Source: Candidatus Saccharimonas aalborgensis
GTDB lineage: Bacteria > Patescibacteriota > Saccharimonadia > Saccharimonadales > Saccharimonadaceae
Direction: 5' to 3'
Assembly (NCBI RefSeq): GCF_000392435.1
Contig: NC_021219.1
Span: 960,001-992,000, forward strand
Length of the DNA: 32,000 bases
Positions 2,736 to 28,040 of the stretch are shown one piece after another; the first letter of the stretch is position 1; the number at the start of each line of letters is the position of its first letter. The notes beneath the pieces were generated by a model, which was not told where the DNA came from, did not search any database, and saw nothing but the letters and a program-made list of their open reading frames with translations. Made by a program: the position numbers and the translations under genes.

Positions 2736-2863
2736 ACGATTTAGTATAGCAGATTTCTCTCAGGTGTAAGCATGAGCGATATAGTTATTATATAAAGTTG
2801 ACTGTACTCAAAGAAAGTGAGAAAATGGTAGTGATATCTGTACATGATAGTGAGGAGGCGTGT

Positions 2864-4462
2864 ATGAAACTAGCAAGAGCAGTTATTATTGGAGGCATCG
2901 TAGCGTTGTTGTCGCTCGTTGTACTCGGACATCTTGAGGGTGATAATGCCCTAGCGCTCAACCCAAGTGCGAGAGACTGTGACAACAATTCGATTATCTA
3001 TTGTGGTGCTATTACGCCTGATGAGCTAGCCACAAAATATGCTCAAAATAAAACCGGTGATTTGCCTGCTCTGTATAGCCATTATGGTATCAGCGCGACG
3101 ATGATCAACGCAAAGTCTCAAAAACAAGGCTATGTTACAAAAGCCGGCGACGTCTACTACAACGGCAAAGTTGTCGCAAAAAAAGCCATCAGCGTGGGCC
3201 GGCAGTACAATACCGGTAGTTGGGCGGTTGGCATCGACGGTCGCACCTATTATGAGCGCTATACTGGCACAAATTACGCTGCCGGAGTTGACGCGATCGC
3301 CGTTCATATTTGGTTCGATGCTAATGGCAAGTTTGTCGCCGCGGTTATGTACTCATGTGGCAATGCGCTTATCGCAACGCCTGTCGAAGTACCGACCGTC
3401 GCCTGTGACACGCTCACTGTTGAAAAGATCAGCCGTACACAATATCGTTTGACCGGCAAAGCACACGCAACTGGGGGTGCTACCATTAAGGCGATTCACT
3501 ATTATGCATTTGACTCAGTTAGCAAGCCAGTGGTGGGAGTAGCAGGTCCCGATGGACAGTCGACAAGCACCGTGACAATGACCATTCCTAATCCCGGAAC
3601 CTATAAGCTTCAAGCGATTGCTCTCACGAGTATGGGCAATACATCGAGCGATGGGTGTACCAAATCTGTCGTTGTCGATCAAGAACCCTGCCCTATTCCG
3701 GGCAAAGAGAATTTGCCAAAGAACAGCCCGCAATGTGTCGAGGATAAGCCCGGTGTTTCGATCACAAAGATGGTCAACAATGCCGAGCATCAGACGGTCC
3801 TTGTTGGTAGTATCTATGAGTATGAGATTTCAGTAAAAAATACCGGCAATGTGCCGCTCAAAGATGTTGTTGTGACTGATACGGCGCCGGCGGGGGTTGC
3901 CTTTATTTCAGCCAGTAGTGGTGAGATAACGGGCGGCACATGGCGCAACACGCTACCTACACTCGCTGTTGGCGAGTCACTCAGTTTCACCATTGCGGCA
4001 AAGATCGCCGCGTACAAGGCTGGTGTCATCAAGAACATTGCTTGTGTTGAAACGCCGACTGTACCTGGCGGCAATCCGGATGATTGTGACGATGCGACGG
4101 TCGAGACAGTTCGCATGATTGACGTGTGCGATTTGCGTTCACACACGATTGTTCGGATTAATGAAAAAGACTTTAATGGTGATCACATGACAAAAGACGT
4201 GTCGCAATGTGAAGACCTCAAGGTCTGTCGTCTGAGCGACAAGACAGTCGTTACTATCAAGAAAAGTCAATTTGACGCTCAGCTTTACTCAAAAACGCTC
4301 AATGACTGTGTGCCTAAGCCTCAGCCTACTCCCCCCGTAACTCCACCCACCGTCGAACTTCCTCATACCGGTATCATCGATACGTTCGGGAGCAGTCTTG
4401 GACTTGGAAGCCTGGTTGGTGCAAGTCACTACTACGTTGCGAGCCGTCGGTCGGTGCGTTAG
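2864..4462 (+). CDS. LPxTG-type sortase-anchored surface protein with DUF11/CARDB-like repeat
   Basis: The track ORF starts at 2798. The ATG at 2864 has GAGGAGG 6 nt upstream and opens with a signal/TM segment, MKLARAVIIGGIVALLSLVVLG. The C-terminus has LPHTG (4358-4372), a hydrophobic stretch and an RRSVR tail. The middle has a DUF11-like segment, ISVKNTGNVPLKDVVVTD. Confidence 0.75.
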   Translation: MKLARAVIIGGIVALLSLVVLGHLEGDNALALNPSARDCDNNSIIYCGAITPDELATKYAQNKTGDLPALYSHYGISATMINAKSQKQGYVTKAGDVYYNGKVVAKKAISVGRQYNTGSWAVGIDGRTYYERYTGTNYAAGVDAIAVHIWFDANGKFVAAVMYSCGNALIATPVEVPTVACDTLTVEKISRTQYRLTGKAHATGGATIKAIHYYAFDSVSKPVVGVAGPDGQSTSTVTMTIPNPGTYKLQAIALTSMGNTSSDGCTKSVVVDQEPCPIPGKENLPKNSPQCVEDKPGVSITKMVNNAEHQTVLVGSIYEYEISVKNTGNVPLKDVVVTDTAPAGVAFISASSGEITGGTWRNTLPTLAVGESLSFTIAAKIAAYKAGVIKNIACVETPTVPGGNPDDCDDATVETVRMIDVCDLRSHTIVRINEKDFNGDHMTKDVSQCEDLKVCRLSDKTVVTIKKSQFDAQLYSKTLNDCVPKPQPTPPVTPPTVELPHTGIIDTFGSSLGLGSLVGASHYYVASRRSVR

Positions 4463-4761: not shown

Positions 4762-5991
4762 ATGAACATACTGATGCTAGGGTGGGAGCTTCCACCTCAC
4801 TATGTCGGAGGTATGGGTGTCGTCTGTGACCAACTTACCAAACAAATGGTCGCTGATGGTGCTGATATCGAATTTGTTCTGCCTTTTAGGGCTGATTTTT
4901 CGGCTATCACGCACATGAAGGTGACGGCGGCAATAGATCAAGATGCGGAAACCTTGATGAAAAGCGGCGGTACCTACGATTCGACGAAGTTTGAGGTGAT
5001 TCGAAAGGACGGATCGAGCCAGATACGGACACTGTATGAGCAGGTCAACGCCTTTGCGCAAAACATCGGTCACGCTGTCGATTTTGGACGATTTGATGTT
5101 ATTCACGTTCACGACTGGTTGACGCTTCGTGCGGGTATCGAGGCAAAGCGCCAGAGCGGGCTCCCCCTCTTTGTGCATATTCATGCTACCGAGTACGATC
5201 GTGCTGGCGGTAAAGAGGGTAACCCACTGGTACGTGAAATTGAATATATCGGGTTACACATGGCGGACCATGTCTTTGCCGTTAGCGAACGCACCAAGCA
5301 AACCCTCATCGATCAGTATGATATTCCTGCCGAAAAGATTACGGTCGCGCGTAATGTCATGGAGATATCGCCCAAGCTCATCAATGAGTCACGTGAGACC
5401 TATCAGTACATCCAGGCGATGCGCGATGAGGGCTATAAGGTTGTGGTAAATGCAGGGCGGATGACTGTCCAAAAAGGTCTGGTGTTTTTGCTTCAAACGG
5501 CACGCCAAGTAATCGATCGAAACCCCAAAACGCTCTTTCTTTTTGTTGGTGGCGGCGAACAGATACCGGAGCTGCAACAGATAGCCAGTGATCTTGGCAT
5601 CGCAAAAAACGTTATTTTCACGGGACGAGTTGAAGGAATCGGCAAAGCATGGCGCGATGCATTTCGCGTCTCAGACTTGTATGTCATGCCTTCTGTCTCT
5701 GAGCCTCTCGGTATGGTCCCCTATGAAGCAATCTCCTACGGTACTCCCGCGCTTGTGTCGCGACAGTCTGGTATCAGCGAAGCGCTTGTCAATGTGCTCA
5801 AGGCTGATTATTGGGATACTCACCGCATGGCCGATCAGATAATAGCTGTTCTCACCCACCAATCGCTCCATGATACCCTGCTCAAAAATGCGCAGGAGGA
5901 GATCACGCGTCATACATGGGCCCCTGTTTCAAGCACAATTAAGAGACAGTATCACCATGTCATCAACCTCAGGAAAGGACAACCATCATGA
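4762..5991 (+). CDS. glycosyltransferase, glycogen-synthase-like (GT4/GT5 type)
   Basis: 409 aa. N-terminus MNILMLGWELPPHYVGGMGVV and GT-B style C-terminal half (PSVSEPLGMVPYEA). First gene of an operon with GH57 and GH15. Confidence 0.7.
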   Translation: MNILMLGWELPPHYVGGMGVVCDQLTKQMVADGADIEFVLPFRADFSAITHMKVTAAIDQDAETLMKSGGTYDSTKFEVIRKDGSSQIRTLYEQVNAFAQNIGHAVDFGRFDVIHVHDWLTLRAGIEAKRQSGLPLFVHIHATEYDRAGGKEGNPLVREIEYIGLHMADHVFAVSERTKQTLIDQYDIPAEKITVARNVMEISPKLINESRETYQYIQAMRDEGYKVVVNAGRMTVQKGLVFLLQTARQVIDRNPKTLFLFVGGGEQIPELQQIASDLGIAKNVIFTGRVEGIGKAWRDAFRVSDLYVMPSVSEPLGMVPYEAISYGTPALVSRQSGISEALVNVLKADYWDTHRMADQIIAVLTHQSLHDTLLKNAQEEITRHTWAPVSSTIKRQYHHVINLRKGQPS

Positions 5992-12565: not shown

Positions 12566-12650
12566 TGGTACCGGAGGTAGGACTCGAACCTACGAAGGCT
12601 TGCGCCGAGAGATTTACAGTCTCTTGTCATTGCCGCTAGACGACTCCGGC
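12566..12650 (-). tRNA. tRNA-Tyr (anticodon GUA), long variable arm, CCA encoded
   Basis: Hand fold. Anticodon arm agaga-CTGTAAA-tctct, variable arm cggcgcaagccttc, T arm gtagg-ttcgagt-cctac, G1-U72 in the acceptor. Confidence 0.85.
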
Positions 12651-12665
12651 ATGCCGCTGTCGCTC

Positions 12666-12737
12666 ATGAGACAAACCGGAGGTTTTTCTCATCGCGCCGG
12701 GCGCGAAATAAATTCGCGTCTCGGGCTGCTCTTTTCC
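12666..12737 (-). repeat. copy 1 of a ~73-nt structured intergenic element (tRNA-Thr/tRNA-Tyr spacer)
   Basis: Shares atgagacaaa..ggtttttctcatcgcgc and ggctgctcttttcc with 27205-27278. The internal hairpin has a different stem sequence but a near-identical loop. Confidence 0.7.
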
Positions 12738-12774
12738 TAAATGCACACGCAACGCATAGGTTATGTGCACATCA

Positions 12775-12851
12775 TGGAGCCGCTTCTCGGACTTGAACCG
12801 AGGACCTACTGTTTACAAAACAGTTGCTCTAACCAACTGAGCTAAAGCGGC
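12775..12851 (-). tRNA. tRNA-Thr (anticodon UGU), CCA encoded
   Basis: Hand fold. Acceptor gccgctt/aagcggc, anticodon arm actgt-TTTGTAA-acagt, T arm ctcgg-ttcaagt-ccgag. Confidence 0.9.
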
Positions 12852-12860
12852 ACATACACC

Positions 12861-12890
12861 ATTTTACCAGAGGTTAGTAGTGTAAATCAA
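12861..12890 (-). promoter_or_regulatory. promoter of the tRNA-Thr/tRNA-Tyr unit
   Basis: The - strand reads TTGATT (12890-12885), 18-nt spacer, TAAAAT (12866-12861). The tRNA 5' end lies 9 nt downstream. Confidence 0.55.
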
Positions 12891-26822: not shown

Positions 26823-27175
26823 TAAAACTCCAATCCTTCTTTACGTGCTGCATCTGCAAGTGCTCCCAGTCGGCCAGCATACTGGCGACCATTGCGGTCA
26901 AACACAACAGTGGTTATTTTTACTTTCTTAGCCTTCTTTGCAATTTCGGTACCGATACTGGCGCACTTTTCAGTCATCCTACCAGTCAGTTTGCTGCCTA
27001 CTGAGGTTGCGCTCGCAAGTGTATGTTGCTTGTCGTCATCAATTAACTGTGCGCTAACGTGCATATTGCTGATAACAACACTTAGTCGTGGTCTCTCGGC
27101 AGTACCGTGTACTTTTGCGCGAACACGACTCTTACGGAGGCTTCGGTTAAGCAGTTTTTTTGCTAAATTAGTCAT
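26822..27175 (-). CDS. rplR: 50S ribosomal protein L18
   Basis: 117 aa. RKSRVRAKVHGTAERPRLSVVISNMHVSAQLIDD ... FDRNGRQYAGRLGALADAARKEGLEF. Confidence 0.95.
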   Translation of the reverse strand: MTNLAKKLLNRSLRKSRVRAKVHGTAERPRLSVVISNMHVSAQLIDDDKQHTLASATSVGSKLTGRMTEKCASIGTEIAKKAKKVKITTVVFDRNGRQYAGRLGALADAARKEGLEF

Positions 27176-27195
27176 TACTTCTTCCCTGCCTTTCC
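27161..27195 (-). repeat. copy B of the duplicated rplF/rplR junction (functional rplR start)
   Basis: The - strand reads gga aag gca ggg aag aag taATG act aat tta gca. 28 of 35 nt identical to 27289-27323. Confidence 0.75.
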
Positions 27196-27303
27196 AGTCT
27201 GTGTATGAGACAAATCTACGGTTTTTCTCATCGCGCGGCGCACAGGAGTAAATCCTGATGCTCCGGCTGCTCTTTTCCCTTGGGTTATAGCTAGATCAGA
27301 CAT
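27175..27303 (-). CDS. 42-codon ORF exactly filling the rplF-rplR spacer
   Basis: My translation is MSDLAITQGKRAAGASGFTPVRRAMRKTVDLSHTQTGKAGKK. The ATG overlaps the rplF stop (TAATG) and the stop overlaps the rplR ATG (TAATG). Not in the track (under 60 aa). Confidence 0.4.
   Translation of the reverse strand: MSDLAITQGKRAAGASGFTPVRRAMRKTVDLSHTQTGKAGKK
27205..27278 (-). repeat. copy 2 of the ~73-nt structured element (rplF-rplR spacer)
   Basis: Aligns with 12666-12737. Flanks are conserved and the hairpin stems differ in a compensatory way. Confidence 0.7.
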
Positions 27304-27323
27304 TATTTTTTACCTGCCTTTCC
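27289..27323 (-). repeat. copy A of the duplicated rplF/rplR junction (functional rplF end)
   Basis: The - strand reads gga aag gca ggt aaa aaa taATG tct gat cta gct. Differences from copy B in the GKAGKK tail are all synonymous. Confidence 0.75.
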
Positions 27324-27857: not shown

Positions 27858-28040
27858 TTATTCAAGTTCTTCATCGTCGTTAACCGGAACATAAGTATTA
27901 AACATGTGCAATACCTGCTCTCGATGCTCTAGCGTTATGCCCAGCAAGGAAGATCCAGCAATTTTCTTGTAAAACTCAGTTGCCGCAGTATCGAGATAGT
28001 CTCGTTGCTCGGGTGTTAATTCTGCTCGTGCCTTGACCAT
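27858..28040 (-). CDS. orphan 60-aa ORF between rpsH and rplF
   Basis: The ATG lies 1 nt after the rpsH stop and the stop lies 18 nt before the rplF ATG. Helical-looking sequence with an acidic tail, NDDEELE. Confidence 0.5.
   Translation of the reverse strand: MVKARAELTPEQRDYLDTAATEFYKKIAGSSLLGITLEHREQVLHMFNTYVPVNDDEELE

Follow-up and report, generated by a model that had tools for sequence, protein, structure and literature searches.

The two structured sequences in the window, as we call the whole 32,000-nucleotide stretch of DNA analysed here, are probably members of a small, non-autonomous family of mobile repeats, a reading to which we assign a probability of about 0.68. The family consists of small hairpin-forming repeats, about 75–80 nt long with variants of 48–105 nt, and is confined to Saccharibacteria. 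An earlier note on this DNA had described a structured element of ~73 nt present twice on the + strand, at 12666–12737 and 27205–27278, and we verified both positions. It had also placed the two copies in the same orientation within − strand transcription units, copy 1 in a tRNA spacer and copy 2 in the spc operon, as is indeed the case. The label 'RNA motif' is too narrow for these sequences because the family is dispersed and apparently mobile and because copy 2 is very probably translated through.

Copy 1 (12660–12739, + strand) matches the full length of covariance model R1, which was built from 113 family members, with 82.7 bits. It comprises a loosely conserved 6-nt 5' extension and a core at 12666–12739, made up of hairpin H1 (12666–12692), the sequence CGCGC (12693–12697), a variable hairpin H2 (12698–12723; CGGGCGCGAA-ATAAA-TTCGCGTCTCG) and a conserved pyrimidine-rich tail (12724–12739; GGCTGCTCTTTTCC plus TA). 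The structured reading is that of the + strand, and the host transcript, which is on the − strand, carries the complement of the element. Copy 2 (27199–27280, + strand; 83.7 bits) has the same layout, with a core at 27205–27280 divided into H1 (27205–27231), CGCGC (27232–27236), H2 (27237–27264) and tail (27265–27280). The 17-mer GGTTTTTCTCATCGCGC occurs at 12681–12697 and 27220–27236, its sole matches in the window even when up to three mismatches are allowed (0.14 expected by chance), and GGCTGCTCTTTTCC is exact at 12724–12737 and 27265–27278.

The stems differ between the copies in the way that had been proposed. In copy 1, H1 reads ATGAGACAAACC-GGA-GGTTTTTCTCAT, with a fixed C.T mismatch; in copy 2 it reads ATGAGACAAATC-TAC-GGTTTTTCTCAT and contains a T.G wobble. 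The copy 1 version of helix 2 is CGCGAA-ATAAA-TTCGCG and that of copy 2 is CAGGA-GTAAA-TCCTG; both versions pair, and the pairing that flanks the helix is flipped, its closing pair changing from C..G in copy 1 to G..C in copy 2. It was likewise correct that the copies differ in length by 2 nt and that, upstream of the ATG which they share on the − strand, their frames differ. Single-strand folds of both copies, computed for both strands, beat shuffled sequences in all four cases (z from −2.2 to −2.8). Scanning the window with R1 revealed no third copy, the next match scoring 10.3 bits; the matches on the reverse strand (24.7 and 13.4 bits) correspond to the palindromic H1 of the two known copies.

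We scanned species-representative genomes with the query CAAANNNNNGGTTTTTCTCATCGCGC, in line with the earlier note's call to look for further copies in related genomes, and found at least 120 loci. All of the loci listed are labelled Saccharibacteria, Saccharimonadia or Patescibacteria except five, which carry the labels Limnocylindria, Verrucomicrobiia (two loci from one MAG), Acidobacteriota and an unclassified 'bacterium'. The genes at these five look saccharibacterial (L6 and L18 of locus L067 are 58–63% identical to those of the window), and the odd labels probably reflect binning errors. The window itself is saccharibacterial, relatives of its L18 being named Candidatus Saccharimonas. 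In the first 100 loci (682 kb), the model found about 13 copies beyond the seeds, roughly one extra per 50 kb, with a density that goes up in ribosomal-protein operons.

From 118 full copies, we derived the + strand consensus ATGAGACAAACC-TAC-GGTTTTTCTCAT (H1), CGCGC, N-[H2]-N' and the tail GGCTGCTCTTTTCCCT. The distance from ATGAGA to the end of CTCTTTTCC is 71–74 nt in 113 of the 118 full copies, with a final CT adding about 2 nt. The boundaries are sharp, information content falling from about 1.5–2 bits inside the element to less than 0.3 bits at both ends, and 5' of ATGAGA there is only a weak GC-rich extension of 6 nt that is able to pair with CGCGC. The two hairpins behave very differently: the C/T mismatch column of H1 is invariant (113/113 copies), whereas the 118 copies contain 110 different versions of H2, all of them foldable, with closing pairs C-G in 73, G-C in 24, A-T in 12 and T-A in 1. 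Covariation, another check that had been named for the element, is strong. When 104 copies were aligned under the guidance of the model, 96% of cells paired, five of the seven modelled H2 pairs covaried and 140 cells had changed on both sides. Shuffles gave 42 such cells, none of the 500 reaching 140, and slid controls gave no more than 28.

The invariance of H1 among the scanned copies is due in part to ascertainment; searching with the covariance model also brought up divergent members whose inner H1 stem has changed in a compensatory way, as in L094:140-218 (ACCTGC/GCAGGT) and L054:218-324 (ATGAGAGG/CCTCTCAT). A further divergent variant is L018:5747-5851. Other variants include minis of 48–56 nt that lack H2, a double hairpin at the H2 position and a 105-nt form. 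No named motif had been recognized by eye, and no Rfam family matches: at gathering thresholds Rfam 15 reported only four tRNAs across the whole window, and at E≤10 copy 1 and the L022 copy drew only chance matches, such as rydB (13.4 bits; cutoff 50) and petD (13.3 bits; cutoff 65.5). A limited full-text search of the literature found no description of the repeat. The results thus support a structured element that is conserved at the level of RNA or DNA, not of protein: further copies exist and their stems covary, Rfam contains no known counterpart, and the two window copies, which differ in their flanks and in their H2 stems, are not the product of one recent local duplication.

Comparison with relatives revealed that both window sites also exist without the element. 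Copy 2 lies between the gene for ribosomal protein L6 (27303–27839, − strand; identified from its translation and from the tblastn and Pfam labels of homologous loci), which is its upstream neighbour, and the gene for L18 (26822–27175, − strand; PF00861, with matches named 50S ribosomal protein L18), which lies downstream. This junction is filled, with the same flanks, in L123–L126, whose L18 is 98% identical to that of the window, and empty in L127/L128, L129/L130, L135, L136 and L137 (L18 85–88% identical) as well as in four more distant relatives. The empty junctions are plain overlapping or near-overlapping stops and starts, that of L127/L128 reading GGAAAGGCAGGGAAGAAGTAATGAC... The L127 empty site, GGAAAGGCAGGGAAGAAGTAATGACAAATCTTGCTAAAAAA, is represented twice in the window, at 27157–27195 and 27285–27323, and the insertion therefore added a target duplication of ~40 bp, which corresponds to the L6-stop/L18-start junction, plus about 88 bp.

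These direct repeats (39 nt, 79% identity, spacing 128) are absent from the earlier note. The one on the ATGAGA side of copy 2 (27157–27195) contains a duplicated L6 tail (GKAGKK*), TAATG and the real L18 start and is the translation initiation region of L18; the one on the tail side (27285–27323) contains the real L6 C-terminus and stop together with a diverged copy of the L18 start. The latter opens a bridging mini-ORF of 42 codons (27175–27303, − strand) that crosses copy 2 between L6 and L18. It begins at the duplicated ATG, which overlaps the L6 stop (TAATG), and ends at the duplicated stop, which overlaps the L18 start (again TAATG); its product, ORF42, matches no Pfam family.

Copy 1 fills the 124-nt spacer between tRNA-Thr(tgt) (12775–12851, − strand), which lies upstream in the transcription unit and is preceded by a promoter-like site at 12890–12861, and tRNA-Tyr(gta) (12566–12650, − strand), the 5' end of which is 15 nt from the ATGAGA end of the copy. 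The Thr-Tyr spacer is 40 nt long and has no element in L132 and L133, and in L134 it holds a decayed copy that is negative with the model.

Long flanking repeats of the kind seen at copy 2 recur in the family. Direct repeats scoring at least 14.5 flank 23 of 113 copies, about a fifth; in a control with mismatched flanks the mean was 7.4 and the maximum of 14.5 was reached once. Where present, the repeats are 14–88 nt long, and near-identical ones are 37–54 nt long; pairs with at most two mismatches measure 50 nt (L027), 43 nt (L107), 44–48 nt (L093), 44–49 nt (L034), 54 nt (L083), 45 nt (L113) and 37 nt (L020). On one side they end 3–14 nt short of ATGAGA, consistent with the weak 5' extension, and on the other they resume 0–23 nt past the tail, leaving a variable filler there. 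Copies that follow the stop codons of PcrA, LepA, AlaRS and other genes have the last 43–54 nt of the gene repeated. No short target duplication of fixed length was found among the copies, their repeats being either long or absent, and the tRNA-adjacent copies have no duplication at all; a single simple cut-and-fill mechanism therefore does not account for every copy. Nor did the consensus have terminal inverted repeats: comparing its first 30 nt with the reverse complement of its last 30 nt gave a score of 5 against a shuffle mean of 5.5, with 81% of shuffles scoring at least as high.

Copies residing in one genome share variants of the second hairpin. H2 identity is 0.656 within genomes and 0.554 between them (p = 5e-5), and near-identical H2 pairs at unrelated loci (L004/L052, L061/L062 and L018/L099) differ only by compensatory double changes. 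The same sites are occupied in several species (the tpiA start four times, the AlaRS end four times, the PcrA end two to three times, the LepA end twice and the L5/S14 junction three times), and there too H2 tracks the genome, not the site, the L020 copy resembling that of L007 and the L026 copy that of L032. Recurrent sites with a genome-specific H2 indicate either reinsertion at hot spots or conversion among copies.

We propose that an enzyme acting in trans would recognize and join the element at H1 with CGCGC and at the tail, H2 being required only to fold. New copies might be pasted at staggered breaks some 40–55 bp apart or arise by target-primed copying, either of which would leave a duplication and, on the tail side, a short filler of variable length. 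Selection in these very compact genomes would then keep only insertions that spare tRNA and rRNA processing and translational coupling. Surviving copies are found almost exclusively in transcribed, harmless places: pre-tRNA and pre-rRNA leaders or spacers, 23S terminal loops, positions just past stop codons and coupled junctions. At such junctions the duplication rebuilds both gene ends, and the open mini-ORF very probably takes ribosomes through the element to the next start. We also entertain, tentatively and as an unlikely extension, a mechanism undescribed in bacteria, either SINE-like target-primed copying of a small structured RNA or a new form of single-strand integration with nicks about 40–55 bp apart, directed towards the heavily transcribed genes for stable RNAs and ribosomal proteins; a subset of copies may have been domesticated as tRNA or rRNA leaders or as obligatory translated bridges. 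The mobile-repeat reading has against it that no mobilizing gene was identified at the loci, that terminal inverted repeats and a short fixed duplication are lacking, that tRNA-adjacent copies have no duplication and that truncated copies are rare, in contrast to LINE-type retroelements. Three further observations, namely the recurrence of sites, the synonymous differences between duplication halves described below and the conservation of H1 and tail, would also fit a host function or a site-specific or recombinational spread.

A host function would take the form of a cis-acting leader RNA on the − strand, the one transcribed at most copies, placed before a tRNA, an rRNA or a ribosome-binding site, with dispersal only secondary; we consider this unlikely, though it is the main rival. 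Such a leader might shield the transcript from 5'-exonuclease by means of a 5' hairpin, mark a site of processing or modify the polymerase. At the listed loci the neighbouring genes are both on the opposite strand in 54 cases and both on the same strand in 14, and the host gene is opposite to the ATGAGA reading by about 4:1; the orientation shared by about 80% of copies favours a leader, and the roughly 20% that lie the other way round weaken the idea. About 30 copies have an opposite-strand tRNA whose 5' end lies 3–15 nt from the ATGAGA (H1) end, the L040 copy lies 8 nt upstream of 16S and a mini copy in L054 abuts the 5' end of 23S. The H1 end is also 7–32 nt upstream of start codons, the other end being variably spaced. 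By eye, extended −10 boxes, for example TGCTACAAT, lie about 20–30 nt past the other end of the tRNA-adjacent copies; these copies thus sit between the −10 box and the tRNA, so that the pre-tRNA leader includes the element's complement. The near-identity of H1 and tail in lineages whose L18 proteins are just 55–62% identical would be expected of a functional leader, as would the recurrence of sites across species and the persistence of the tpiA copy, although its near-identical flanking repeats should favour deletion.

Several observations argue against this function. The element is missing from close relatives at both window sites, the L134 copy has decayed in place, and some copies lie past stop codons far from the next gene (L107, L027 and L083) or inside 23S. 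Four copies are located in terminal hairpin loops of 23S rRNA (those of L116 at model positions of about 283 and 583), and all 23S-internal copies are antisense to the rRNA. The 5' ends of tRNAs, 16S, 23S and mRNAs are matured by different enzymes, which makes a common processing role hard to picture. Base pairing gives evidence in both directions. In 110 of 118 copies the + strand gives the better H2 fold, and G.U pairs number 78 on that strand against 16 on the − strand; 63 of the 78 represent one conserved G.T at the third H2 pair (63/113 copies), which pairs on the + strand only and so speaks against a − strand leader, but the H1 variant ATAAGA (14/113 copies) gives a G.U pair on the − strand only.

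The arrangement at coupled genes fits a tolerated mobile repeat. At ribosomal-protein junctions of the TAATG type, a bridging mini-ORF is open in all 11 insertions (the window, L010, L012, L013, L017, L038, L059, L067, L098, L101 and L114), running from a duplicated start that overlaps the upstream stop, through the element, to a duplicated stop beside the real downstream start. Same-orientation copies with duplications (four at tpiA, one each at msrA and truB) likewise have a uORF from the duplicated ATG in six of six cases. This uORF reads the element in one frame (..ETNLRFFSSRR..RAALF..) and stops at or just before the real start, overlapping codons 2–3 of the gene in the four tpiA cases, and the filler carries a Shine-Dalgarno sequence. 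The mini-ORFs through the element are very probably translated.

Spread of the element as a structure-specific recombination site is improbable. In this scheme, the element, folded in one DNA strand, would be recognized as in an integron attC site, or as in a REP served by a RAYT or an IS200-type HUH enzyme, and the duplications would come from small circles, carrying the element with a fragment of a gene end, that integrate by homologous recombination. Conserved ends around a variable central hairpin and a strand-specific conserved G.T would suit such a site, as would the targeting of the same gene ends in several species and the length of the 37–54-bp duplications, which is near the RecA pairing minimum. 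It would further account for the way in which the halves of duplications differ, mostly synonymously, like alleles from different genomes: a hand count of eight pairs gave 29 synonymous and 4 non-synonymous codon differences, and in the L030 duplication all 8 differing codons are synonymous, including a TCT/AGC serine switch. By eye, however, the consensus lacks both the attC core sites (RYYYAAC/GTTRRRY) and the REP GTAG signature. The sequence of H2 is not conserved, unlike both end hairpins of IS200/IS605, and duplications are missing from most copies, including those at tRNA and rRNA genes. None of the loci showed an integrase or HUH gene adjoining a copy.

In the window, the half of the duplication that serves L18 initiation keeps GGGAAGAAG, like the L127 empty site, and GGTAAAAAA stands in the half that encodes only the L6 tail; relatives vary at the first of the three codons, which is GGT in L135–L137. 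We infer that the two halves of a duplication are under different constraints. Elsewhere, synonymous divergence must be explained by invoking either recombinational import of diverged alleles or translation of both halves.

Two further readings fare worse. An antitermination signal resembling nut in the + strand RNA, with a boxB-like variable hairpin followed by UGCUCUUU, which equals the core of the E. coli rrn boxA (UGCUCUUUAACAA), was suggested by the tail GGCTGCTCTTTTCCCT, which contains TGCTCTTT directly 3' of H2, and by the rRNA, tRNA and ribosomal-protein operons that host the element. In all of the rRNA cases and nearly all of the tRNA and ribosomal-protein cases, however, the strand with TGCTCTTT is antisense to the transcript, and because it is antisense the boxA-like sequence cannot act on those transcripts; orientation brings this very improbable reading close to refuted. 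That the conserved blocks encode a small protein or peptide can practically be dismissed: two of the three frames are open on each strand and translation of mini-ORFs through the element is very probable, yet H2 varies in length, which makes the element 71–74 nt long regardless of codon phase, the window copies lie in different frames upstream of the shared ATG, insertions use differing frames, tRNA and rRNA copies lie outside ORFs and ORF42 has no Pfam match, so that a peptide gene was rejected for want of a single conserved reading frame.

Other candidates were also rejected. A phage or viral origin found no backing in a scan of IMG/VR with the 17-nt core: its two matches were due to chance, and the remainder of the element was missing from them. 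By eye, the core motifs of hammerhead, group II domain V, SRP-RNA and tRNA-like structures do not fit, and Rfam is silent on them. The element contains no conserved −35/−10-like hexamers that would make it a promoter, and the −10 boxes lie upstream of the tRNA-adjacent copies.

Dispersed hairpin repeats such as REP, MITE and RPE are known as a kind, but the saccharibacterial family is absent from Rfam and from the literature searched. It is set apart by ends that are not inverted repeats, by one fixed and one free hairpin, by 37–54-bp duplications that rebuild gene ends, by translated bridges in coupled operons and by residence in tRNA and rRNA leaders and within 23S. With REP/BIME sequences and REPINs, which are served by RAYT, an IS200/IS605-like HUH enzyme, it shares the form of short non-coding hairpin repeats in transcribed intergenic parts of operons, as well as orientation patterns, conserved stem mismatches and genome-specific sequence variants. 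It differs from them in having two hairpins, one of them conserved in sequence, and no GTAG-type 5' motif, and in lying also inside rRNA and across coupled gene junctions; REP and IS200/IS605 make no target duplications, whereas this element is often flanked by duplications of 37–54 bp. No RAYT gene came to light at the loci, and their 0.92 Mb contained no inverted copy pair around a protein gene, the arrangement typical of RAYT; L054 does have an inverted pair, but within 23S rRNA. PATE, which derives from IS200/IS605, has two similar subterminal hairpins, a fixed tetra- or pentanucleotide 5' of the insertion and no target duplication, whereas here H1 is invariant and H2 free, the flanks show a weak preference for T and A/C, and ~20% of copies are duplicated. 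Integron attC sites, apart from the missing core sites (by eye), occur in cassette arrays, and copies of this element occur in tRNA, rRNA and ribosomal-protein operons.

Bacterial MITEs such as the Neisseria Correia elements, RUP and ERIC are likewise small, non-autonomous, dispersed repeats with sharp ends and presence/absence polymorphism, co-transcribed with host genes and with effects on the expression of neighbours. The saccharibacterial element has neither their terminal inverted repeats nor their short duplications of fixed length, its own duplications being long and variable or absent. Unusually long direct target duplications are found in the IS1634 group of the IS4 family, in which they are also variable in length, but these are autonomous elements of 1.5–2 kb with inverted-repeat ends and a DDE transposase, and the element has nothing comparable. 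An autonomous long version, sought as an H1 without a nearby tail, was not found in 0.92 Mb of loci. Rickettsia palindromic elements (RPEs) offer a parallel in a reduced genome, as hairpin repeats lacking stops in several frames that are tolerated inside translated regions and RNA genes. RPEs lie in frame inside proteins, whereas this element is read by separate bridging mini-ORFs with gene ends rebuilt by duplication, and the two have no sequence similarity. The copies in terminal loops of 23S in L116 and L054, including the helix-25-type site that is usual for 23S intervening sequences, resemble such sequences, but the same element also occurs in tRNA leaders and between protein genes.

Elements of the SINE type, which move by target-primed reverse transcription (TPRT), share with the family long target duplications of variable length, a short filler at one end, tail-only relics (L004), targets that resemble the 3' tail (L093 and L030) and a bias towards tRNA genes and strongly transcribed genes. 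On the other hand, the 3' end of the element is CTCTTTTCCCT and not A-rich, truncated copies are rare and many copies lack a duplication; moreover, we know of no SINE-type target-primed enzyme in bacteria. Truncation at the 5' end as a hallmark of a retroelement was rejected as unsupported given that rarity, and tail-only matches numbered 9 against 7 in shuffles, so that truncated copies are not generally enriched. L004 alone shows the tail-only relics. The targets in L093 and L030 already resembled the element tail. Taken together, the tail-like targets and the L004 relics hint at microhomology-guided joining.

Saccharibacteria have very gene-dense genomes of about 1 Mb and are thought to be poor in mobile elements. 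For the Candidate Phyla Radiation, a repeat seated in the loci that are most essential and most heavily transcribed (tRNA and rRNA genes, the interior of 23S and the spc operon) would represent a new kind of genome parasite or else a regulatory module that has been recruited. Because the duplications rebuild stops, ribosome-binding sites and starts and create translated bridging mini-ORFs, they are a clear natural example of harmless insertion into translationally coupled operons, and they point to an integration mechanism as yet unnamed. In practical terms, the family can serve as a lineage marker and is a source of assembly breaks and spurious small ORF calls in Saccharibacteria MAGs. We also considered RNA-templated duplication that starts exactly at RNA 5' ends (a leaderless ATG or the +1 of a tRNA) and set it aside because independent events were too few; the L034 repeat seems to run further upstream, where a Shine-Dalgarno block takes the place of the −10 box.

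The contents of the S8/L6 junction of the spc operon differ between the window and four relatives whose L6/L18 junction is empty (L127, L129, L135 and L136). In the window, the S8 and L6 genes are separated by a 60-codon ORF (27858-28040, - strand) for which there was no Pfam match. L127 has an unrelated ORF of 71 codons at this position (1746-1961), L129 has approximately 1 kb between the two genes (931-1991), including a 132-codon ORF, and in L135 and L136 the gap is just ~15 nt. On this evidence, the spc operon seems to have a second variable insertion point at S8/L6. The L6/L18 spacer of L067, a contig that itself carries the element, contains a 127-nt insert (4998-5125) in which GGAGTGCGAAGT...ACTCCGCACTTC forms a long inverted repeat. 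This insert has no relation to the element, indicating that another palindromic sequence entered the same junction. L067 is one of four element-bearing contigs, with L079, L097 and L101, from MAGs labelled Limnocylindria, Verrucomicrobiia or Acidobacteriota. In L067, the locus checked, the ribosomal proteins are as similar to their window counterparts as are the proteins from labelled Saccharibacteria loci, and all four contigs are probably mis-binned.

The 23S rRNA gene of L116 (719-4065) is 3347 nt long, compared to 2925 nt for the model, and contains two copies of the element plus extra insertions of ~70 nt and ~20 nt around model positions 312 and 400. At the L004 locus, a full element is immediately followed by two additional tail-like pieces (2229-2330), one being GACCTGCTCCTTTCCCT and the other a small hairpin plus CTCGGGCTGCTCTTTTCCCT, which suggests repeated or abortive insertion at a single site. 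Just upstream of tRNA-Thr in L134 (CP064995.1) lies an ORF of 92 codons (2740-3018) that matches HNH weakly; the Thr-Tyr spacer of the same genome contains a decayed copy of the element.

In L034 (6020-6200), the duplication flanking the element seems to continue for ~20 nt beyond the msrA ATG on its upstream side, where TTTAGGTG compares with TTTAGCTG. The repeats are otherwise identical, and the -10 box TAAAAT and its spacer have been swapped for a block with GGAGGTGA. The result is a change of msrA from a leaderless to a Shine-Dalgarno-led start. Extended -10 boxes (TGnTACAAT or TGnTATAAT) are found repeatedly in front of tRNA genes and leaderless-looking ORFs, as in the flanks of tRNA-adjacent copies (for example, L008, L025, L039 and L087) and in L026 and L102, with no obvious -35 nearby; promoters in these genomes may typically be of this kind. 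In the leaderless-looking ORFs of L034 and L102, the extended -10 box lies 6-7 nt upstream of the ATG.

The element tail includes TGCTCTTT, which is identical to the E. coli rrn boxA core, after the variable hairpin in both window copies (12726-12733 and 27267-27274, + strand). This strand is antisense relative to the host operons, so the match to boxA is probably a coincidence.
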